A DNA stretch of 64,000 nt from Rhodanobacteraceae bacterium (GTDB lineage: Bacteria; Pseudomonadota; Gammaproteobacteria; Xanthomonadales; Rhodanobacteraceae). The stretch spans positions 573 to 64,572 of the forward strand of contig DASSNC010000111.1 in NCBI GenBank assembly GCA_035688305.1. The letters run 5' to 3'. The notes under the pieces were generated by a model. It was not told the origin of the DNA. It did not search any database and saw only the letters and a list, made by a program, of their open reading frames with translations. The translations under genes and the position numbers were made by a program. Of this stretch, positions 10,522-48,521 are shown piece by piece. How positions within the stretch are numbered: position 1 is the stretch's first letter; every line of letters begins with the position of its first letter.

Positions 10522-10893
10522 ATGGCAAACATCCTCATCATCGACGACTCGCCCACCGACGTGAAGATTTTTTCCGGCGCGCTGGAGCGGGCAGGGCACA
10601 AGGTCAGCGCAGTCGCGACCGCCGAGGCAGGTATCGCGGCGGCCCAGAAGGAACAGCCCGACCTGGTCTTGATGGATGTGATCATGCCCGGCATGAACGG
10701 CTTCCAGGCCACCCGCAGTCTCACCAAGGATCCGGCGACCAGTGCCATTCCGGTGGTCATCGTCACCACCAAGAACATGGAAACCGACCGCATGTGGGGC
10801 TTGCGCCAGGGCGCCAAGGACGTGCTGGTCAAGCCGATCAGCGAAAAGGATCTGGTCGCCAACGTCAACAAATATCTCCCGGCCAAGGGTTGA
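10522..10893 (+). CDS. pilH: Response regulator PilH (CheY-like)
   Basis: The internal ATG at 10522 gives MANILIIDDSPTDVKIF..., with DVIMPGMNGF further on. The upstream part of the ORF overlaps pilG and is not needed. Confidence 0.9.
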   Translation: MANILIIDDSPTDVKIFSGALERAGHKVSAVATAEAGIAAAQKEQPDLVLMDVIMPGMNGFQATRSLTKDPATSAIPVVIVTTKNMETDRMWGLRQGAKDVLVKPISEKDLVANVNKYLPAKG

Positions 10894-10900
10894 TCGACGC

Positions 10901-11524
10901 ATGAGCAAGAAACGCCGGCAAAAAACGCGTTCGGGCGAGGTCGCCGATGCGACTGGCGCCGCCGAGCACGAGGTTGCCGAATTCGCGCAGCCCGAGGGGG
11001 CGTTTGCGCTGCTGGCCGACTATGAACAGCGCAGCCTTGAGCACGATCCCGGTGTGCCGGAGCAGATCGAAGCGCCCGGCCTGTGGCGCGCGATCGGCTT
11101 TCGCGTGGGTGAGCGCCACTTCGTATGCGGGATCGACGAGATTACGGAAATCCTGATGGTGCCGCCGCCGGTCACCAGCATTCCCGCAACGCGCCCGTGG
11201 TTGCTCGGCGTCGCGAATGTGCGCGGCAACCTGATCGCGCTGGTGGACCTGAAGCAATTCCTGTTCGGGCAGCGCGTGCATGTCACTGGACGCACGCGGG
11301 TACTTGTGGTGCGCCAGAGCGGCGGCAACGTCGGACTGCTGGTGGACGAGCTGCTTGGGCAACGCAACCTCACCGACGCCGACCGTGCCGGGGCCGAGGG
11401 CGAAGCCGATCCCGGTCTCGCGCGTTTCGTCACCGAGAACGTGACGACTGCACAGGCAAGGCTGGGACGATTCAGTATGGTGGAGTTGACGCGCGCGCCG
11501 GAATTCCAGCACGCGGGACTCTAG
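10901..11524 (+). CDS. pilI: CheW-like coupling protein PilI
   Basis: The ATG at 10901 gives MSKKRRQ... CheW domain (PWLLGVANVRGNLIALVDL). Position between pilH and pilJ. Confidence 0.85.
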   Translation: MSKKRRQKTRSGEVADATGAAEHEVAEFAQPEGAFALLADYEQRSLEHDPGVPEQIEAPGLWRAIGFRVGERHFVCGIDEITEILMVPPPVTSIPATRPWLLGVANVRGNLIALVDLKQFLFGQRVHVTGRTRVLVVRQSGGNVGLLVDELLGQRNLTDADRAGAEGEADPGLARFVTENVTTAQARLGRFSMVELTRAPEFQHAGL

Positions 11525-11683
11525 TTTTGCGATCATCCCCGATCGCGGTTGCGTTGGGTGTTTTCGAGTATTGGAGGGGTTGCACACGATGAACACCAGA
11601 ACGGCCCTGGGTGGCCTGACTTTCAACGACAACCGCTCCGAATCAACGGTTCAAACGACAGACTTGGCAATGAGGTGGCAATC

Positions 11684-13684
11684 ATGAGCGCGAATACCGG
11701 TGCGGCACGCCAGCGGGCGTCCCTGCAAACCTGGCTGATCATCCTGCTGCTGGCGTCGATCATTCTCGCCGGCGTGGACTTCTTCCTGTTGAACCGGCAC
11801 GACAGTCAGGACCGTGCGGCGGCGCAGCTCACCACCCACATCCAGGTGAACTCGCAACAGGTCGCGAACTTCGCCCTGCAATCCGCGAACGGCAACATCG
11901 ACGCCTTCAAGGAACTCGCGAGCACGCGTGGCGCGATCGCGGCGGCGGTGCAGCATCTCAACAGCGGCGACCCGGCCACCGGGCTGCCTGCCTATGGCGA
12001 CGCGATCGGCGTGCGCAGCGAGATGGCCGCGCTCTCCAATTCGTGGAACGCGCTGAACAACGACCTGGGCAAGATTCAGGCAAACCGCGGCGCGGTGCTG
12101 GATTCGGCTGCACAGGCTGCCACCTTCAGCCAGCAGATGCCGAACCTGAACTCGAAGATCAACCAGGTCATCAGCATCCTGCAGTCCAAGGGTTCGTCCT
12201 CGCAGATCTACACCGCCTCGCAGCTGATGGTCTCGGGCGACCGCCTGATCCGTCGCGTGGGTGACGTGTTGCAGGGCGGTGCCGACTCGGCATCCGCCGC
12301 CAACGGCCTCGCGCTCGACTCCACCAACTACGGTGCGACCCTGAAACAGCTTGCCGACGGCAGCTCCGGCGAGGCGGCCAAGATCCTCGGCGAGGTGCAA
12401 AAATCGTGGACTGGCCTTGAAGCGCCGGTGCAGAAGGTGATTGCCGCCGCCCCGACGCTGGTGACGGTCAAGAACGCCGCGACCCAGGCCTCGGTGGATT
12501 CCCAGGACGTGTTGTTGAAGGCCAGCAACGTGTCCAACGCCATCGCCAAGCTGCCGCAAACGCGTCCGTTCCCGAACGTGTGGTGGGGCCTTCTGGGCGC
12601 CGTCGCGGCGGGCGTGTTGGCGATCTTGCTGGCAGTCAACTTCATCCGTACCGAGCGCAAGCGTTCGGCCGAAAGCCGCAGTTTGAATGAACGCAACCAG
12701 CAGGCCATCATGCGGTTGCTGGACGAAATGGGCACCCTCGCCGAAGGTGATTTGACGGTAAAGGCGACCGTGACCGAAGACATCACCGGCGCGATCGCGG
12801 ACTCGGTGAACTTCGCCGTGGAAGCGCTGCGTTCGTTGGTGACCACCATCAACGAGACGGCCGTGCGGGTGTCGTCGGCCGCCCAGGAAACGCAGGCTAC
12901 CGCCAAACATCTGGCGGACGCCGCCAACCAGCAGGCCCAGCAGATCACCTCGGCCTCGGCCAAGATCAACGAGATGGCGGTGTCCATCGACCAGGTGTCC
13001 AAGAACTCCGCCGACAGCGCGGAGGTGGCCCAGCGCTCGGTGCAGATCGCATCCAATGGCGCGCAGATCGTGCGCCAGACGATCTCGGGCATGGACTCGA
13101 TTCGCGAGCAGATCCAGGAGACCTCCAAGCGCATCAAACGCCTCGGTGAGTCGTCGCAGGAAATCGGCTCGATCGTCGAGCTCATCAACGACATCGCCGA
13201 GCAGACGAACATCCTGGCCCTGAACGCGGCCATTCAGGCAGCCTCTGCCGGTGAGGCGGGCCGCGGCTTCGCGGTGGTCGCCGACGAAGTGCAGCGACTG
13301 GCCGAACGCGCCACGGGCGCCACCAAGCGTATCGAAACGCTGGTGCAGACGATTCAGTCCGATACGGTCGAGGCGGTCAGCTCGATGGAGCAGACGACGA
13401 CGCAGGTGGTGAACGGTGCGCGCCTCGCCGAGGATGCCGGTACCGCGCTGGGTGAAATTGAAAAGGTGTCGAACAACCTCGCCGGATTGATTCAGGGCAT
13501 CTCCAGCGCCGCCAAGCAGCAGTCCGCGGCGGCCACCAACATCTCGTCGACGATGAGCTCGATTCAGCAGATCACCACGCAAACGTCGGTGGGTGCGAGC
13601 CAGACGGCCGAGTCGATCGGCAATCTCGCGCAACTGGCCCAGGAGCTGCGCCGTTCGGTCGCCGACTTCAAGTTGCCGGCATAA
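11684..13684 (+). CDS. pilJ: Methyl-accepting chemotaxis protein PilJ
   Basis: The ATG at 11684 gives MSANTGAARQRASLQTWLIILLL.... Two TM helices and the highly conserved MCP signalling domain (EIGSIVELINDIAEQTNILALNAAIQAASAGEAGRGFAVVADEVQRLAER). Confidence 0.9.
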   Translation: MSANTGAARQRASLQTWLIILLLASIILAGVDFFLLNRHDSQDRAAAQLTTHIQVNSQQVANFALQSANGNIDAFKELASTRGAIAAAVQHLNSGDPATGLPAYGDAIGVRSEMAALSNSWNALNNDLGKIQANRGAVLDSAAQAATFSQQMPNLNSKINQVISILQSKGSSSQIYTASQLMVSGDRLIRRVGDVLQGGADSASAANGLALDSTNYGATLKQLADGSSGEAAKILGEVQKSWTGLEAPVQKVIAAAPTLVTVKNAATQASVDSQDVLLKASNVSNAIAKLPQTRPFPNVWWGLLGAVAAGVLAILLAVNFIRTERKRSAESRSLNERNQQAIMRLLDEMGTLAEGDLTVKATVTEDITGAIADSVNFAVEALRSLVTTINETAVRVSSAAQETQATAKHLADAANQQAQQITSASAKINEMAVSIDQVSKNSADSAEVAQRSVQIASNGAQIVRQTISGMDSIREQIQETSKRIKRLGESSQEIGSIVELINDIAEQTNILALNAAIQAASAGEAGRGFAVVADEVQRLAERATGATKRIETLVQTIQSDTVEAVSSMEQTTTQVVNGARLAEDAGTALGEIEKVSNNLAGLIQGISSAAKQQSAAATNISSTMSSIQQITTQTSVGASQTAESIGNLAQLAQELRRSVADFKLPA

Positions 13685-41679: not shown

Positions 41680-42237
41680 ATGCAGCTCTACCTCGACCTC
41701 CTGCGCGACGTGCTCGAGAACGGCGCCCGCAAGGACGACCGCACCGGCACCGGAACGCTATCTGTGTTCGGGCGGCAAATCCGCATGGACCTTGCCGCCG
41801 GCTTCCCGCTGCTCACCACCAAGAAACTGCACCTGAAGTCCATCGTGCACGAGTTGCTGTGGTTCCTGCGCGGCGACACCAACATCGCGTACCTGAAGGA
41901 ACACGGCGTCAGCATCTGGAACGAATGGGCCGACGCCAGCGGCGACCTCGGCCCCGTGTACGGCAGGCAGTGGCGGGCCTGGCCGACGCCCGACGGACGC
42001 AGCATCGACCAGATTTCGCGGGTGGTCGAACAGATCAGGCAGCGCCCCGATTCGCGCCGCATGCTGGTCAGCGCCTGGAACGTCGGCGAGCTGGACCAGA
42101 TGGCCCTGATGCCCTGCCACGCCTTGTTCCAGTTCTACGTCGCGAATGGGAAATTGTCGTGCCAGCTGTACCAACGCTCGGCGGATATCTTTCTTGGCGT
42201 GCCGTTCTTTTCAGGCATAGCAATTCTGAAGGCCTAG
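41680..42237 (+). pseudogene. thyA: Native thymidylate synthase, truncated after about 176 codons by the island insertion
   Basis: It reads as canonical ThyA ([15 protein letters not shown]...[16 protein letters not shown]) up to 42207. Nine unrelated codons (FSGIAILKA) and a TAG stop follow. The roughly 88 C-terminal residues expected from established ThyA sequences are absent, and base composition drops at the same point. Confidence 0.85.
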
Positions 42238-42340
42238 GTACTCGTTTCCCTGTAGGCCATATCGCTATTGTCCATGATCCAGGGCGAGCGTGTTGCGCCT
42301 CAGGCCTATGTCAGTTATACCGGCCAACGAAATTGGGAGT

Positions 42341-43243
42341 ATGAGCGTGCGTCATCCGGAACATCAGTATCTTGATTTGCTTGCGCAGGTTCTGAACCAT
42401 GGCGACGAACGCCTCGACCGGACCGGCGTTGGCACTCGCTCGATCTTTGGTGCCATGGTTCGCTTCGACTTATCTGATGGAACTGCTCCCATCCTTACGA
42501 CCAAACGCGTCTACTGGAAGACCGCCGTGAAGGAGATGCTCTGGTTCCTGACGGGTGGGACGAATATAAAGCCGCTGCTTCGCGAAAAGGTGCGAATCTG
42601 GACTGATTGGCCTTTGGACAAATTTCGCCGAACTACCGGGCAGAATATTTCACAAGAAGAGTTTGAGCAACGAATTTTAGACGACGATGACTTCGCCGCT
42701 CAATGGGGTGATCTCGGGCCGGTGTACGGCAAGCAGTGGCGTCGGTGGCTGGGATCAGACGGCCGAGAACATGATCAAATTGCAAATTTAATACTTGCGT
42801 TACGCGAAAAACCAACAAGCCGGCGCATGCTGTTTCACGGCTGGAATGTTGCTGAGCTCGACAAAATGGCGCTCCCTCCTTGTCACATGGTTTATCAATA
42901 TCATGTGACATCTACGGGTCGCCTTAACTGTTTGTTATTTCAGAGATCGGTCGACTTGCTGCTGGGAGCCGCTTTCAATTATGTCGGTGCAACAGCATTG
43001 CAACTAATGCTTGCGCAGCAAGCTGGTCTTAATCCAGGAGAGTTGGTTTGGGTTGGTGGTGACGTTCATTTGTATCTTAATCATCTCGATCAAGCGCGTG
43101 AGCAGCTCTCACGTGAGCCCCGCCCGTTCCCAAAGATCAGGCTCACGCGTCATGCGTCGAGCATCGACGACTATAGGATCGACGACTTCAAAGTCGATGA
43201 CTACTTGCCGCACCCGCCGATTAAGGCTGATGTCGCGGTTTAG
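42341..43243 (+). CDS. thyA: Island-borne complete thymidylate synthase (long type with an inserted small domain)
   Basis: ATG at 42341 preceded by GGGAG. The 300-aa product starts MSVRHPEHQYLDLLAQVLNHGDERLDRTGVGTRSIFG. Motifs include [36 protein letters not shown] and HLYLNH. The C-terminus PHPPIKADVAV is intact. Confidence 0.9.
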   Translation: MSVRHPEHQYLDLLAQVLNHGDERLDRTGVGTRSIFGAMVRFDLSDGTAPILTTKRVYWKTAVKEMLWFLTGGTNIKPLLREKVRIWTDWPLDKFRRTTGQNISQEEFEQRILDDDDFAAQWGDLGPVYGKQWRRWLGSDGREHDQIANLILALREKPTSRRMLFHGWNVAELDKMALPPCHMVYQYHVTSTGRLNCLLFQRSVDLLLGAAFNYVGATALQLMLAQQAGLNPGELVWVGGDVHLYLNHLDQAREQLSREPRPFPKIRLTRHASSIDDYRIDDFKVDDYLPHPPIKADVAV

Positions 43244-43298: not shown

Positions 43299-45920
43299 TT
43301 GAGTGAGCACAGGCTGCGTTCTCTACTCGATCACGATTGTAAAGACGGACGAATCCTGGCCGATCGTGGCGGCAAAATAAGCCGACGCCACTACGCAGGT
43401 CTACTCGGCTGTACTCACAGTGCCCTGGCGAGGTTCAAGGCTGTGTTCGCGGAGTACGAGCAGCGACTCGGTATAGTGACGGGTCCGATGCAACACTTCT
43501 CTGAGATGAGAAAATGGCTCACTAAGTCATACGAGTCACGAGAGCTAGGGATTCGCGATAACAAGTTGGACCGAGTTGCATTCATGATGCACTTTGGTCT
43601 GCGTGGTGGGACTTTTATGAGACGCCACCCACCAATTCGGAAGTTGTTCGAGGAGTTTGATGCTCGCGCGAAACGTGAAAGCTATCTTCCGCTCGAGAGA
43701 TATAAGGAACTCGAACGAGTAGTGGCCATACTTGCCGCTGGGCCTGTCCTCAACAAAGACCGAATGACCATTAATCAGGTCGAGCTCGCGAAAGCAGCCA
43801 AGGTTCCTAGGGCCAGACTCGGCAGCAGGCCTTTTGCAGATGTAGTTGCGGCAAGCCAAGCGACAATCTCGGCTGAAGTCGCTGCAAGTAGAATTGATCC
43901 ATATGTTCACGGCCGCGTTTTCCCGTTTAGTGACTTAATAGCACCTTGGTCAGAGCTATTTCTCGAGCGTGTTGGGATTCGATTCAAACATATAGCGGTG
44001 GGCCTATCGCCATCAACGGTTAAAGGCCCTTATCTCCAGCTTGTTCATATGCTTGCCTGGATCGGCAGAAGTGAGAATCCGCACTGTCGAACAGTTGTTG
44101 CCGAAGCCAATAAATTTGGCCGAGTGCACTCAGTCGATGAATGGGAGGAGGCGTTATTTGTCTACCGTGATCGACTGGTTGCAACGATTGCCGATGGATC
44201 AGCGACGGAAAGTTCCGTTGACGGTGCGATTTCTGCACTGCGTATCGTGCTCAACGCTCTGTCTTCGGCGCAGGTCGTGCCACCTGTTGCGATAACCTTA
44301 CCAGGCATTAAGCACGTCAGGCGTCGAAGCGGCCACCTGAGGAGCGTTGCGGAGGCGAGCCTCACTGACGCGGGGCAAGAAGCCGATTACGTTGCATTCG
44401 CACGAGATCGCTTCCTCGATGCGTGCAAGGGTTCGGGCACCGACATGGGGATGGGCGACACGGACGACTTCATCAACGGGTTAACCGTTGAGATTAGCGT
44501 CTCTCATGATTTGTCTAGCGATCCTGTTGAGGCGATTCGCCTTGTGCTGGAGCGGCGCCTCCGTGCTCTTCACAGCCATGCAGCGGCGATCGTTGATAGT
44601 GCTGTGAAGGCCAGACAGCGAGGTCACGAACTGCTCTTGCGCTCTCAAATCGACGGGGCGGCATTCGAAGCCGGCTACCTTGCGTCTACTGGCAATCCGT
44701 ACAAATTAAGGCAACTTGTCCGAGAGTTTTTCCCAAATCCGGCTGATTCCACAAAAGCCAAGACTGAACAAGGCGTTGCGAATCTGCTAGCGCTGATCCA
44801 ACAGCGGTGTGGGGGAGTCCCACCGGTGGGCAACAAAAACAATAGTCTTGGTTACGGGCAGTTCTTTGCCAAACGCTATCTCGCCTATGGTGGACTAGCA
44901 ACTATCGGTAGATTGCTGAATCCGGATTCGGATACTGTTGGCGCAGTCCTTACTCTGTATCTCATCGAAAGCGGGGCGAACGTAAGCGTAGGTCGTACGC
45001 TCGATCGGGAATGCATGGAAGCCAGTGACCTAAGCAAATATTGCCGCATCACCGGTTACAAGGCCCGAGCTAAGGGAAAACCCATCATAGTTGACTTGCC
45101 AGAACGCTCGCCGGCTGTGGAGGCAATTAAATGGTTCTTATCGAGCAGCGAAGAACTGAAAGCCGCTGCGGGACGTGACAGCGATCGACTATTTCTAATG
45201 CGGATTGGCGGTCGCGTACAACTGATGACACCGCATTGGTACAACAATTGGTTCAAATCATTCGCGGGGTCAGTGCCAGAGCTGCAGGGCGTAAAACTGC
45301 TCCCGAGCATGATTCGGCCATCTGTACTCCTACACGCTTCGCTCGGAAACGAAGGCCGACTCGCGGTGGGAATGGCTATCGGCCAACACGGACTCGCCGT
45401 GACTCAAGGCTATCAGCAGAAGTGGCCCACCAGGCTGTTGTATGACGAAAATATCCGGCGCTTTCAAAAAGCATTCGAAACCCTGGTCCTTTCCGGTGCG
45501 GAGGATGTGGCGTTGAAACTTGGCATTACGGTGGAACAGTTCACTGCACGGTTGGGAGAGTTGCGCGCCACTGGGCTCGGCACCTTCTGTAGGGATCAGC
45601 GGGGGCGCTCCAGTGAGCCCGGTAAAAAATGCTCCACGCTCGACTGCTGGAACGACTGCCCGCATATGCTTATTGTGGCTGAGGTAGAGGCAATCGCTGC
45701 ACTTCAACTCTGGCAAAGGTCGCTACGGGCTGCGCGCCCAGATTGGGAACGCGACCAGCCTGAGCGTTGGGATCGGGTGTGGCTTCCTTGGCTCTGCCTC
45801 ACAGATGTCGTCGAGGAAAAGATGGTGCGCGGTCCTATGATCAAGATTTGGAATGCGGCAATGCGCCGAGCATCTGAGATCTCCGCGAAATCCGACTACG
45901 TACCGCCTCACCCTTGGTAA
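43299..45920 (+). CDS. Large tyrosine-recombinase-like protein, first of the trio (Tn554 TnpA-like position)
   Basis: ORF 43011-45920. Its upstream part overlaps thyA in another frame, so the start is uncertain; a TTG at 43299 is the first plausible start after the thyA stop. C-terminal catalytic-domain-like motifs: SGANVSVGRTLD (Arg I), ITGYKARAKGK, LLPSMIRPSVLLHA (x-x-Arg), GQHGLAVTQGY (His...Tyr). Confidence 0.65.
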   Translation: MSEHRLRSLLDHDCKDGRILADRGGKISRRHYAGLLGCTHSALARFKAVFAEYEQRLGIVTGPMQHFSEMRKWLTKSYESRELGIRDNKLDRVAFMMHFGLRGGTFMRRHPPIRKLFEEFDARAKRESYLPLERYKELERVVAILAAGPVLNKDRMTINQVELAKAAKVPRARLGSRPFADVVAASQATISAEVAASRIDPYVHGRVFPFSDLIAPWSELFLERVGIRFKHIAVGLSPSTVKGPYLQLVHMLAWIGRSENPHCRTVVAEANKFGRVHSVDEWEEALFVYRDRLVATIADGSATESSVDGAISALRIVLNALSSAQVVPPVAITLPGIKHVRRRSGHLRSVAEASLTDAGQEADYVAFARDRFLDACKGSGTDMGMGDTDDFINGLTVEISVSHDLSSDPVEAIRLVLERRLRALHSHAAAIVDSAVKARQRGHELLLRSQIDGAAFEAGYLASTGNPYKLRQLVREFFPNPADSTKAKTEQGVANLLALIQQRCGGVPPVGNKNNSLGYGQFFAKRYLAYGGLATIGRLLNPDSDTVGAVLTLYLIESGANVSVGRTLDRECMEASDLSKYCRITGYKARAKGKPIIVDLPERSPAVEAIKWFLSSSEELKAAAGRDSDRLFLMRIGGRVQLMTPHWYNNWFKSFAGSVPELQGVKLLPSMIRPSVLLHASLGNEGRLAVGMAIGQHGLAVTQGYQQKWPTRLLYDENIRRFQKAFETLVLSGAEDVALKLGITVEQFTARLGELRATGLGTFCRDQRGRSSEPGKKCSTLDCWNDCPHMLIVAEVEAIAALQLWQRSLRAARPDWERDQPERWDRVWLPWLCLTDVVEEKMVRGPMIKIWNAAMRRASEISAKSDYVPPHPW

Positions 45921-45924
45921 TTGT

Positions 45925-47979
45925 ATGACTAAGGACGCCGCACTTACTCATCCGAGCGTCATACCAGTTCCGCTTGACATGGATGATCGACGCCGTGCGT
46001 CATGGCTGCTGAACAAGTACACCGACTCGATTTGGGTAGTTACCGACACACATGATCGTGGTCAGAGGAATGCGATCCAGTTTCAGTTTAGGCTGGCTGA
46101 CGGGAGGTCTCTGATAAACGCCGATAGGCTGTACGCGACGGTTAAAGAATATGCTTGGTGGGTGCGGGACTCCAGATACAGCCGCATTGACGACGCATCC
46201 ACACACGCGACGATGGTGCGCAACTTGATGAATTTCGCACACGCGCTAAGCCTACGCAACATCTGGTCGTTTGCCCATTTGCAACCGTACGACCTGGAGC
46301 AACTGATAGAGGACTGCCGCTTTGGTACCGATGCTCTAATCCACGCTTCGGAACGAGTTGAAGCACATCTACGAAAATTGGAAGAAGCGAACAAAAGCGA
46401 GCCCAGGCCGTATGGAGGGCTTCCCCCGTATGTCAATCCAGCCACCGGTAGGCGCACTGGCTTCGTCTCTTCAGGCCAGATTCTGGCGGCGTGTAACCTG
46501 CCCACTAGCGCGCGCACGTTGCGACGTGTCGGTGAGCTGATTGCGCGAGCTGCTGCGGCAAATGGTCTACGGATAAGGCGGCCGCTTCGCAACTTTGCCG
46601 GCGATCTTGACCAGTTGCCTAATGTGACAGTCCAAGCTTTACATCGGTCGTTAGATCCGCTCGAGCAACTTTATGCCATGCGGCGCAAGATCTTGGCTGA
46701 GTCCATCGGGTTTAGACCATTTCCATGCGGCGCTGCACGAGTTGCGGCTGCCAAGGGGGTGGGTGCTGCGCGTACCCCCATTCCGCCACCGATGCTCGTG
46801 CTTCATCTTTTTGAGCAATCCGCGCGCTGTATCTCCGACTACGATGAAAAGCTGAAACCCAGTCAGATGGAGCGAAGCGACGTATTCCGAATGGCATCTG
46901 CGTGCTGGATCGTTATCGCCGGGTTTACCGCTCGTCGCGATGAGGAGATCGACGATTTGCGCCATGGGTGCCTTCGAGGAGATGAGCAAGCCGGTTGGTG
47001 GCTCCATGTGTACATTGAAAAGACTTTGCAGCGTAAGGAATGGATCCCGGTGCCAAGACTTGTAGCAAGGGCGGTCGAAATAATGTCGGCCATCAGTGCG
47101 ACTGCACGGCAGGAAGCAGGCGGCGATCAGCTGTTCCAGTGGCTACATCCGGACAGCAGAAGAACGGTTCGGATCGATGTTGGCCGCCAACTAGATGAAT
47201 TCGCCGAGGCGGTGCACGTCCCACTGCATCGTTCGCCTGACGGGTCAGTCGCTGCTTGGCACTGGCATCCCCATCAGTTTCGGCGGTTCTTTGCCGTTTT
47301 GTACTTTTACCGCTTCGAGGGTGCAACGATCGAGGCTTTGTCGCACCATCTCCGACACTTCAGTTTGGAGATGACAAAGCGCTACGTGACTCAGGACCCG
47401 GAGGTTGCTGCTCTTTGGCGTGATGTCGAATGGGGCTACTTGGGTGAGGTTGCACGATCCATTGTCGCGGGCGAGCGTTCTGTCTCTGGTGCCGCCGGTG
47501 AGCGATTGAAAAAGGTCGCACACCGTCTTATTGACATGTTTCGGCGCAAGCTGCTGATCATCTCACCAGAACGCGTTGGCGCCAGCGTCGCACTGATTAT
47601 GCGGCGCCAAGGAATGGTGCTGACGCCTAAGCCTTGGGTTATCTGCTCCTGCCCAAGAACGCGTGACGCTGCGATACTTGCAGCATGCCGCCGCGAACAA
47701 CCTGTTGATGTAGCGGCGGTGGGCCCCGACTTTGCGCATGCTGGTCCTTTAGTTTGCTCTTCATGTCCCCACGCCATAACGCAAAGGGATCGGTGTAGTG
47801 CCATCGATGCCGAAGTCAAACATCTGGAGGCCGCTGCCGTGTCTCAACCTCGCACTAACACTCTGCTTGGAGCGCTCGAGGAAGCCCGGGTAATCGAGCT
47901 GCGCCGCGTTCGGGAAACGCAGTACGAACACGCAAGCGCTGTCAGGTGGGCGACTCAGGAAATGGAGGGAAATGGATGA
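45925..47979 (+). CDS. Tyrosine recombinase, second of the trio (Tn554 TnpB-like position)
   Basis: The ATG at 45925 lies 5 nt after the previous stop. Motifs: FTARRDEEIDDL (Arg I), HPHQFRRFFA (His-x-x-Arg), LSHHLRHFSLEMTKRYV (His...Tyr nucleophile). Confidence 0.8.
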   Translation: MTKDAALTHPSVIPVPLDMDDRRRASWLLNKYTDSIWVVTDTHDRGQRNAIQFQFRLADGRSLINADRLYATVKEYAWWVRDSRYSRIDDASTHATMVRNLMNFAHALSLRNIWSFAHLQPYDLEQLIEDCRFGTDALIHASERVEAHLRKLEEANKSEPRPYGGLPPYVNPATGRRTGFVSSGQILAACNLPTSARTLRRVGELIARAAAANGLRIRRPLRNFAGDLDQLPNVTVQALHRSLDPLEQLYAMRRKILAESIGFRPFPCGAARVAAAKGVGAARTPIPPPMLVLHLFEQSARCISDYDEKLKPSQMERSDVFRMASACWIVIAGFTARRDEEIDDLRHGCLRGDEQAGWWLHVYIEKTLQRKEWIPVPRLVARAVEIMSAISATARQEAGGDQLFQWLHPDSRRTVRIDVGRQLDEFAEAVHVPLHRSPDGSVAAWHWHPHQFRRFFAVLYFYRFEGATIEALSHHLRHFSLEMTKRYVTQDPEVAALWRDVEWGYLGEVARSIVAGERSVSGAAGERLKKVAHRLIDMFRRKLLIISPERVGASVALIMRRQGMVLTPKPWVICSCPRTRDAAILAACRREQPVDVAAVGPDFAHAGPLVCSSCPHAITQRDRCSAIDAEVKHLEAAAVSQPRTNTLLGALEEARVIELRRVRETQYEHASAVRWATQEMEGNG

Positions 47980-48521
47980 GGTCCCCACGGACAACCTTGC
48001 TCGACAGAGGTCGGGGTGCCAAGCCCCAAACAGTCGAACAACGGATTGAAAGACGCCTCGAAGTCCTGCGGGAATGGCTCCGTAGTGGTGTCCCGGTGGG
48101 CAGATCCATTCCTAAGAATCTGAAAGCAGTACGCATATGGGAAGAAGCCGAACTCCGTATACAACCCATCGCATCGCCGAATGAATTCACGACGACGCAT
48201 CGGTTGCACGGCCCTCTTATACGTGACATTGCCGGAATTCTCACTGAGCTGAAGAAGCGCTACAAGCAACCAGCAAGAGCCCAGCCAAAAGCATCAACAT
48301 CAGTAGAGAAATTCGATCGCAAGGCGTTCGAAAGGCAACTTGAGGCAGTGGTGTCGCAATGGCACTCAGAGCGCGATCAGCGATTGAGTCAAGAAAGGCG
48401 CGCCGATGCGGCTGAAGCCCGCAATGTATTGTTGCTTGAGGAGAGCGCAAAAAAGGATGTTCTTATCGCCGATCTTCGGCGACAAGTCGCAGTGCATAAA
48501 GGTTTGAGGGTAGTGAAGTGA
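47976..48521 (+). CDS. Small coiled-coil protein, third of the trio (Tn554 TnpC-like position)
   Basis: The ATG at 47976 forms an ATGA overlap with the previous stop, with a GGAGGGA Shine-Dalgarno sequence at 47964-47970. 181 aa. The C-terminal half is heptad-like and charged (ERQLEAVVSQWHSERDQRLSQERRADAAEARNVLLLEE). No family recognised. Confidence 0.55.
   Translation: MRSPRTTLLDRGRGAKPQTVEQRIERRLEVLREWLRSGVPVGRSIPKNLKAVRIWEEAELRIQPIASPNEFTTTHRLHGPLIRDIAGILTELKKRYKQPARAQPKASTSVEKFDRKAFERQLEAVVSQWHSERDQRLSQERRADAAEARNVLLLEESAKKDVLIADLRRQVAVHKGLRVVK

Follow-up and report, generated by a model that had tools for sequence, protein, structure and literature searches.

Three open reading frames (ORF1, ORF2, and ORF3), which occupy roughly positions 43,299–48,521 of a 64,000-nucleotide stretch of a Rhodanobacteraceae bacterium genome (GenBank assembly GCA_035688305.1, contig DASSNC010000111.1, positions 573–64,572, forward strand; hereafter the window), quite probably form the operon at the left end of a genomic island and encode three of the four proteins of a tyrosine-recombinase machine, which inserts the island at, and excises it from, a fixed position in thyA. 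In the proposed division of labour, ORF2 would be the catalytically complete large recombinase; ORF1 would be a paralogous recombinase-fold subunit, most likely a structural or DNA-targeting partner with possibly a partial share in catalysis; ORF3 would be a small accessory protein such as the mobile elements SE, GInt, and Tn554 depend on; and ORF4, an integrase of about 460 residues encoded near the right junction of the island (attR), would be the fourth component, with all four proteins needed. Recombination would occur across a 6-bp overlap in the Pro-Phe codons of thyA. The three ORFs are as follows.

43230 or 43299 to 45920, plus strand: ORF1, 873–896 residues, predicted tyrosine-recombinase fold with Asn in place of the first catalytic arginine (Arg-I)
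45925 to 47979, plus strand: ORF2, 684 residues, full catalytic set and Cys-rich C-terminal extension, in the IntB position
47976 to 48521, plus strand: ORF3, 181 residues, start overlapping the ORF2 stop (ATGA), with a GGAGGG Shine-Dalgarno sequence upstream

An initial annotation of the window, generated by a model from the sequence alone, had proposed these three tightly coupled genes; they are present, conserved, and syntenic in every related locus, and all the motifs that it quoted are found in the sequence. The ATGA overlap is as it described, and the spacer between ORF1 and ORF2 is 4 nt (TTGT) rather than 5 nt. At 90% identity, the homologs of ORF2 fall into at least 163 clusters, those of ORF1 into at least 135, and those of ORF3 (about 184 residues, none annotated) into 100, nearly all of these clusters being unannotated, and a profile search of 1.8 billion representatives placed the ORF1 superfamily in 539 clusters at 50% identity. 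Because each of the three has a large family of full-length homologs, they are real genes and not chance ORFs. The ORF1 frame is open from 43011, with candidate starts at ATG 43230 (896 residues) or TTG 43299 (873 residues) and no in-frame start between them. With the ATG start, ORF1 overlaps the stop codon of an intact thyA copy carried by the island by 14 nt; the database protein P0121, which is 98% identical to ORF1, has the 896-residue length of this version.

Judged by the fold of its model and by its residues, ORF2 is a complete tyrosine recombinase. Although Pfam gave a weak, sub-threshold match to PF00589 (E 0.003), its AlphaFold2 model (predicted local distance difference test, pLDDT, 82.5) matched XerH, Cre, lambda Int, and IntI with a Foldseek probability of 1.0 and aligned with Cre at a VIA Z score of 13.6 over 273 residues (root-mean-square deviation, rmsd, 4.7; residues 90–496, domain span 68–516). 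Among 32 family members, R338, E341, K366, R453, H478, and Y487 are invariant and H450 occurs in 30; the same residues recur in 11 distant homologs, with the single exception of a Lys at position 450. ORF2 has both of the features that define the superfamily, the core-binding plus catalytic fold and the R-K-H-R-H/W-Y residue set.

ORF1 shares the fold and departs from the residue set. It had no match in Pfam or NCBIfam, and neither the ORF1-family nor the ORF2-family profile found anything among the PDB sequences. The predicted model (pLDDT 86.6) contains a core-binding plus catalytic fold: the top Foldseek matches were exclusively tyrosine recombinases, the top 50 VIA rows were all recombinases or type IB topoisomerases, and residues 214–724 aligned with XerH at Z 16.7 over 299 residues (rmsd 5.0). 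To this fold are added (i) an N-terminal domain (residues 1–213); (ii) a large helical insertion; and (iii) a C-terminal extension. In 66 diverse relatives, N561 is found in 65, K588, R673, and Y705 in all 66, and H697 in 63, and the column of the second catalytic histidine, His-II, is variable. Full-length hhalign between the ORF1 and ORF2 families returned nothing, and a match came only from the catalytic sub-alignments (E 3.5e-5, 142 columns), in which S670/R673 of ORF1 pair with H450/R453 of ORF2 and H697/Y705 pair with H478/Y487; gapless extrapolation of this register places ORF2 R338 on ORF1 N561. On these alignments, ORF1 is an N-K-x-R-H-Y protein that has retained the fold and the nucleophile and has lost Arg-I and His-II, and, lacking the full R-K-H-R-H/W-Y set, it is probably not a catalytic member of the standard type. 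Of the R-H-R-Y residues that the initial annotation had expected in both proteins, the full set is thus recovered in ORF2, and ORF1 is without Arg-I and His-II. The motif VGRTLD of ORF1, taken there as the parallel of RRDEE in ORF2, is shifted by five residues: the Arg-I column holds N561, whereas R566, considered as a replacement Arg-I, was rejected because it is present in only 43 of the 66 sequences.

That both large proteins end in recombinase-like catalytic regions holds for the folds and not for their terminal position, since conserved, Cys-rich extensions of about 150–170 residues lie beyond them. In ORF1, the Cys cluster (residues 760–790) includes the conserved C764, C778, and C787 and the less conserved C783; in ORF2, the cluster after the catalytic domain (residues 570–615) includes C574, C576, C588, C611, and C614. 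These clusters, for which a weak Fer2_BFD match was obtained, may bind metal. The N-terminal extensions had likewise been put at more than 500 residues and left unexplained. Ahead of the ORF2 catalytic domain there are in fact about 280 residues, mostly core-binding domain, and the ORF1 extension is partly accounted for by residues 57–128, which are homologous to stand-alone proteins of about 145 residues (hhalign probability 94%, E 1.3e-7).

ORF3 comprises a conserved N-terminal domain with an SPNEFTTTH motif and a long helical tail. The tail is helical and poor in Pro and Gly; a crude heptad test gave a weak signal and does not support the coiled coil proposed earlier. ORF3 had no match in Pfam or NCBIfam and belongs to no known family, and protein atlas searches with ORF3 and with the ORF1 N-terminus yielded no usable lead. 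Homologs of ORF3 follow an ORF2-like gene in the related loci L005 (E 7e-12) and L014 (E 3e-17), and the small proteins of the more distant loci L016–L020 show a weak colinear match (E 2.6e-4). Size, position, and the helical tail are what suggest that ORF3 may be equivalent to Srap, GinD, or TnpC.

The fourth gene was found by scanning the whole genome with PF00589, which gave a weak match where contig C24 begins, shortly before a 3′ remnant of thyA. This ORF4 is present near attR in all nine related loci, sharing 46–71% identity with its counterparts in the eight close ones and 34% with that of the distant L014, and full-length copies are about 460 residues long. Its core-binding domain is SAM-like (PF13495 and PF02899, with scores over the cut-off in L007 and L014), its catalytic domain is of the Phage_integrase type (PF00589, 44 bits in L014), and its motifs RRxE, KG, HRxR, and GH...Y are conserved. 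ORF4 is an ordinary integrase and the fourth member of the conserved set, which lies outside the coordinates of the window.

The two ends of the island lie within thyA. The host gene, its island-borne substitute, and the left junction (attL) are arranged as follows.

41680 to 42207, plus strand: host thyA 5′ fragment, high GC (PF00303 positions 2–178, E 1.5e-84), of which the crossover hexamer is the end
42202 to 42207, plus strand: attL crossover hexamer CCGTTC (thyA Pro-Phe codons); also found at attR, ahead of the thyA 3′ remnant (C24:1158-1163)
42208 to 42221, plus strand: left terminal inverted repeat TTTTCAGG (family consensus TTTTCCGG) with a CATAGC motif directly after it, assigned by left-junction conservation
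42338 to 43243, plus strand: island thyA, full-length, low GC (PF00303 positions 1–266, E 1.3e-103), adjoining ORF1 on its upstream side

The host thyA frame is lost after G-V-P-F at about 42207, that is, at codon ~177, and the 3′ remnant (PF00303 positions 173–266) lies on a separate contig of the same genome (C24:1146-1427). Across about 42.2–62 kb of the window, the G+C content falls sharply from about 65% to about 55%. The left repeat is conserved at the left junctions of L006, L008, L009, L011, and L013, where the layout is GGCGTG-hexamer-TTTTCCGG-CATAGCG; its reverse complement CCGGAAAA is the element end at attR in this genome (C24:1150-1157) and in L008, L010, and L012, where the layout is CATAGCG-(12–30 nt)-CCGGAAAA-hexamer-AAT. 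In the excised circle, joining of the ends would place perfect 8-bp inverted repeats on both sides of the overlap (CCGGAAAA-N6-TTTTCCGG), with direct CATAGCG motifs flanking them at unequal distances, as pieced together from attR and attL. Terminal inverted repeats had been held to be absent from elements of the Tn554 family; this element has short (8-bp) ones. Since these repeats barely resemble the thyA flanks, the target and the element ends are probably recognised through separate DNA-binding surfaces. At attR, native thyA sequence (CCGTTC or GCCTTC) makes up the hexamer in four of four cases. The attL hexamers are CCGTTC, CCCTTC, GCCTAC, CCGTTT, GAGTTC, and CCGAGG, at least three of which do not encode Pro-Phe, and in L008 the attL and attR hexamers differ at four positions. 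The two overlaps would not have to be identical, so that the hexamer of the target stays at one junction and the other receives a hexamer brought along by the element, a footprint of the type reported for SE and Tn554; those attL hexamers that still spell the thyA codons in a different synonymous form seem to record earlier hosts.

The same arrangement recurs in other bacteria. Eight close loci from Alpha-, Beta-, and Gammaproteobacteria all carry ORF1-ORF2-ORF3; island thyA lies directly upstream in seven of them, is 72–84% identical to the copy in the window, and is followed directly by ORF1 every time. The host 5′ thyA fragment is present in five, in constant orientation, and the 3′ remnant lies 2–5 kb past ORF3 in three. 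Insertion site and orientation are identical in Alpha-, Beta-, and Gammaproteobacteria, and the end sequences and the position of the 6-bp hexamer are conserved. The tie between the trio and thyA-specific insertion suggested by the initial annotation is therefore borne out, with the trio in eight of eight close loci, the same left junction in five loci and the window, and agreement among all four right junctions. A minimal element of about 8 kb in Oryzibacter oryziterrae consists of thyA-ORF1-ORF2-ORF3-ORF4 followed by attR, with no other content. The close family was absent from 400 sampled genomes of the phylum (0/400), and the literature searched holds no name for it.

The multi-recombinase types recognised in the literature are Tn554 (TnpA, TnpB, and TnpC), SEs (strand-biased circularizing integrative elements), GInts, and RITs. 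Family hidden Markov models were searched against contiguous four-gene modules with the SE gene order from a Mesorhizobium plasmid, C. metallidurans pMOL28, and P. aeruginosa pPAC1.3a, with the following matches.

Module gene 1, ~380 residues: matches ORF4 (E 1e-23 to 1e-26); ordinary recombinase
Module gene 2, ~552–569 residues: matches ORF1 (E 6e-23, 2e-4, and 4e-3); in two of the three, Asn in the Arg-I column and a retained Tyr can be read
Module gene 3, ~616–637 residues: matches ORF2 (E 1e-21 to 1e-23); complete catalytic set

As ORF4, ORF1, and ORF2 match genes 1, 2, and 3 of these SE-ordered modules, the family of islands in thyA (the thyA family) is a permuted, split version of the module. 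The N-terminus of ORF1 showed a weak match to gene 4 (E 5e-4, probability 32%). Parts of the Cys clusters of ORF1 and ORF2 recur in genes 2 and 3 of some of the modules. The permuted order is also found in the distant loci L014–L022 and on the P. aeruginosa megaplasmid pPUV-7 (784, 700, 314, and 435 residues). The pPUV-7 locus (L026, NZ_MT732185.1:336556-343639) reads as two "integrases," an unknown protein, and an integrase, with an efflux-pump gene a few kb downstream.

With its fourth, ordinary integrase gene, the thyA family is closer to the SE and GInt systems, four-protein recombination systems described recently, than to Tn554. In SEs (IntA, Tfp, IntB, and Srap) and GInts (GinABCD), all four genes are required, one recombinase-fold protein is without catalytic residues, and there are 6-bp overlaps and footprints (PMC5385486, PMC10214605). 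With the SEs of Vibrio alfacsensis (SE-6283 and SE-6945; PMC10214605, PMC9345347), the thyA family shares an ordinary, a defective-pocket, and a large complete recombinase (IntA, Tfp, and IntB types; E 1e-26 to 2e-4 against genes 1, 2, and 3 of the SE-ordered modules), a small Srap-type protein after ORF2, translational coupling, site specificity, and, as attL and attR indicate, inverted repeats around a 6-bp spacer with a 6-bp footprint. It differs from them in that (i) its genes run in another order (Tfp-like, IntB-like, small, IntA-like) and are split, often with cargo between ORF3 and ORF4, so that none of the nine related loci has contiguous intA-tfp-intB-srap at the left end, and in each of them ORF4 is found downstream of the trio or at the far end; (ii) ORF1 keeps the catalytic Tyr, Lys, second Arg (Arg-II), and His, whereas Tfp is reported to be without RHRY; (iii) ORF1 is about 300 residues longer and has the extra N-terminal domain; (iv) ORF3 has no detectable similarity to gene 4 of SE-ordered modules; (v) the hosts include Alpha- and Betaproteobacteria, where the published SE survey had none; and (vi) the target lies inside an essential gene, for which a substitute is carried.

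The GInts of Pseudomonas (ginABCD; PMC5385486) likewise have three recombinase-fold proteins, one of them without the first arginine, together with a small protein, all four of which are required; 6-nt staggered cuts; imperfect flanking repeats; and an operon at the 5′ end followed by cargo. By contrast, the GInt genes are contiguous, with the defective one reported third, and GInts insert at gene ends and leave the product intact, whereas the thyA module is split and permuted and cuts its target gene, so that neither the contiguous ginABCD order nor gene-end insertion is found here. The tmk island of Pseudomonas putida KT2440 (PMC10653934) is similar in that an essential nucleotide-metabolism gene is split and a substitute (a dNMP kinase) is carried, and its conserved core is described as a pair of tyrosine recombinases together with a small "TetR-like" protein and a protein of unknown function; it has another target and another substitute, and the likeness is drawn from the published description.

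The initial annotation had read the trio as organised like tnpA-tnpB-tnpC, a reading in which ORF1, ORF2, and ORF3 would be TnpA, TnpB, and TnpC of a Tn554-type module sufficient for insertion into thyA. Its general logic of several recombinases plus a small protein stands. The order of large recombinases followed by a small protein, the translational coupling, and the size of ORF2, which is near that of the Tn554 "large" recombinase (PMC10214605), agree with it, as do the site and orientation specificity and the 6-bp core with a footprint-like, carried-over hexamer that are features of the Staphylococcus transposon with its two recombinases and small essential protein (PMC10214605). The one-to-one mapping fails at ORF1 and ORF4. 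In Tn554, three contiguous genes begin with an ordinary catalytic RHRY recombinase and no Tfp-type protein is present, whereas here the first gene encodes a defective paralogue that lacks Arg-I and His-II and matches the gene in the Tfp position, whose counterpart is missing in Tn554 (PMC10214605), and a separate fourth gene, which accompanies the trio in nine of nine loci, supplies the ordinary recombinase. The host phyla also differ, and none of ORF1, ORF2, and ORF3 had a Tn554-type match in NCBIfam. We therefore consider a three-gene Tn554-type module distinctly unlikely.

A different division is conceivable, in which ORF4 alone is the integrase of the island and ORF1–ORF3 form a separate system of DNA-binding regulators, of dimer resolution or maintenance, or of a nested second element. 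ORF4 is indeed a classical integrase that adjoins attR, the ORF1 pocket is degenerate, and YopR, MrpR, and SroF are among the structural neighbours of ORF2, recombinase folds with incomplete sites being known to act as phage repressors. ORF2 itself, however, keeps every catalytic residue across its superfamily, which argues for its catalysis. The trio and ORF4 occur together in all loci, including the ~8-kb element that holds only them and island thyA, and a second pair of ends, as a nested element would have, was not seen. In the four-gene modules, the same three proteins are contiguous and coupled, and the genetics of SE and GInt show that each gene is needed (PMC5385486, PMC10214605). With these points in view, we hold an ORF4-only integrase to be improbable and retain the four-protein machine as the reading of the locus.

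ORF4 is interrupted in this genome. The N-terminal part, at about 10025–10545 of contig C134, abuts the left end of an insertion sequence (IS), and the C-terminal part, at C24:140-1005, abuts its right end:

C134:~10534-11754 and C24:1-139: IS3-family element of ~1.2 kb, with orfA (HTH_Tnp_1) and orfB (rve), splitting ORF4

A 3-bp CCA duplication flanks the IS, and its removal restores the conserved W-x-T-P-L-T-L-S of ORF4. Because this IS is multi-copy, with its ends found at the ends of contigs C24, C42, and C23, the assembly is broken at ORF4. As ORF4 is interrupted, this copy of the island is probably immobile, and one may go further and regard the island as a decaying relic, fixed in place, whose trio has no function in this lineage; the rearranged left ends of L010 and L012 would fit such decay. 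But ORF1–ORF3 are all intact, 98–99% identical to proteins from other samples, and have every conserved residue in place, and decay would in any case touch this copy only and not the identity of the genes, which makes a relic a very remote prospect.

The operon of ORF1, ORF2, and ORF3 is probably transcribed from the host thyA promoter. A promoter scan of the module found no promoter-like site on the plus strand, the overall number of sites being not above chance; this is compatible with read-through from the host promoter and is not proof of it.

Several observations weigh against the four-protein machine. Arg-I is needed for catalysis in the recombinases that have been studied, and its absence leaves the role of ORF1 uncertain. 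Between the ORF3 family and gene 4 of the four-gene modules, similarity was not significant (E 0.007–0.07). The link to SE and GInt runs through unnamed four-gene modules with the SE gene order; pMOL28 and Mesorhizobium are not among the modules listed in the GInt supplements. ORF4 stands apart from the trio, with cargo between ORF3 and ORF4 in this genome, L008, and L010 and after ORF4 in L007, L009, L011, and L013, so that it could be a classical integrase working by itself. Finally, the joining of ORF4 across C134 and C24 depends on an assembly that is broken at a multi-copy IS, and since the left part of C134 is only 89–90% identical to the tail of the window contig, strain mixing is possible in this metagenome-derived assembly.

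The tail of the window contig holds a type I restriction region (C109:62862-65145 and 68815-69036), which recurs on C134 (1–2283 and 5515–5736) and represents either two paralogous restriction loci of the island or two co-assembled strains. The island measures at least 27.6 kb, and its right part stays provisional.

The stand-alone proteins related to ORF1 residues 57–128 are encoded directly after ORF3 in seven related loci and not in this window. In several loci, further genes lie between these genes and ORF4.

L007:6252-6668, L008:12594-13055, L009:12493-12918, L010:12555-13016, L013:12510-12938, L014:11566-12009, and L005:8581-9000: genes for proteins of ~145 residues homologous to ORF1 57–128
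L008:13013-15343, L010:12974-15277, L014:12006-14231, and L005:9003-11312: RecD2-like helicase genes

GRLPW is the C-terminal sequence of four of the ~145-residue proteins, and that of the ORF1 family is an invariant ...P-x-P-W; these endings might be a common docking tail. The RecD2-like protein, found in four loci between the ~145-residue protein gene and ORF4, is a superfamily 1 helicase of about 770 residues (AAA_30, HHH_RecD2, and UvrD_C_2), and the Rhodovastum plasmid locus has a RepB-type primase as well, which hints that some members replicate or process DNA when excised. Left ends are rearranged in L012 (4655–5662) and L010 (3000–7300). In Oryzibacter, an IS3-family transposase lies upstream of island thyA and the host 5′ fragment is gone; in Sphingomonas Leaf412, island thyA is gone, although the element still meets the thyA remnant at an intact right junction.

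Among the distant loci, a sister branch is associated with another essential gene, ligA. In L016, L017, L018, and L020, the upstream neighbour of the ORF1-like gene is the C-terminal half only of an NAD-dependent ligase (zinc finger, HhH, and BRCT).

L016:5868-6737, L017:5807-6688, L018:5806-6729, and L020:5563-6708 (minus strand): C-terminal ligase halves

In each of the genomes of L016, L018, L019, and L020, an N-terminal ligase fragment lies immediately ahead of a second ligase that is full-length and more divergent. By their coordinates, the ligA pieces sit at the two ends of a 15–17-kb insert that holds the module, the proteins of which are about 715, 665, 175, and 452 residues long. From the fragments at the insert ends and the second ligase, it follows that the sister branch splits ligA and carries a substitute, as with thyA; the sister element appears to bring a replacement ligA. 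Its hosts are Photobacterium, Colwellia, Halomonas, Motiliproteus, and a Rhodocyclaceae genome. We tentatively raise a broader reading, which we consider possible though rather less than even in its chances: that these families form an undescribed multi-tyrosine-recombinase class (Tfp-like, IntB-like, small, and far-end IntA-like) that splits essential genes and supplies the substitute, thereby creating host dependence, and in which ORF1 is a working catalytic partner, for example with an active site shared with ORF2 or ORF4, and not a dead scaffold.

Multi-recombinase elements such as Tn554, SE, and GInt spread resistance and defence genes. Within this setting, the thyA family is a natural permutation of the four-protein set, and it offers precise ends with perfect 8-bp inverted repeats, a 6-bp overlap, and footprint-like hexamers, as well as a minimal ~8-kb element of module and thyA and a defective paralogue that retains its tyrosine. 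It extends SE-type machinery to the Alpha- and Betaproteobacteria missing from the published survey. Such machinery repeatedly targets essential genes (thyA and ligA) and carries the substitute, and the splitting of an essential gene together with the supply of its substitute would stabilise defence islands such as that in this window.

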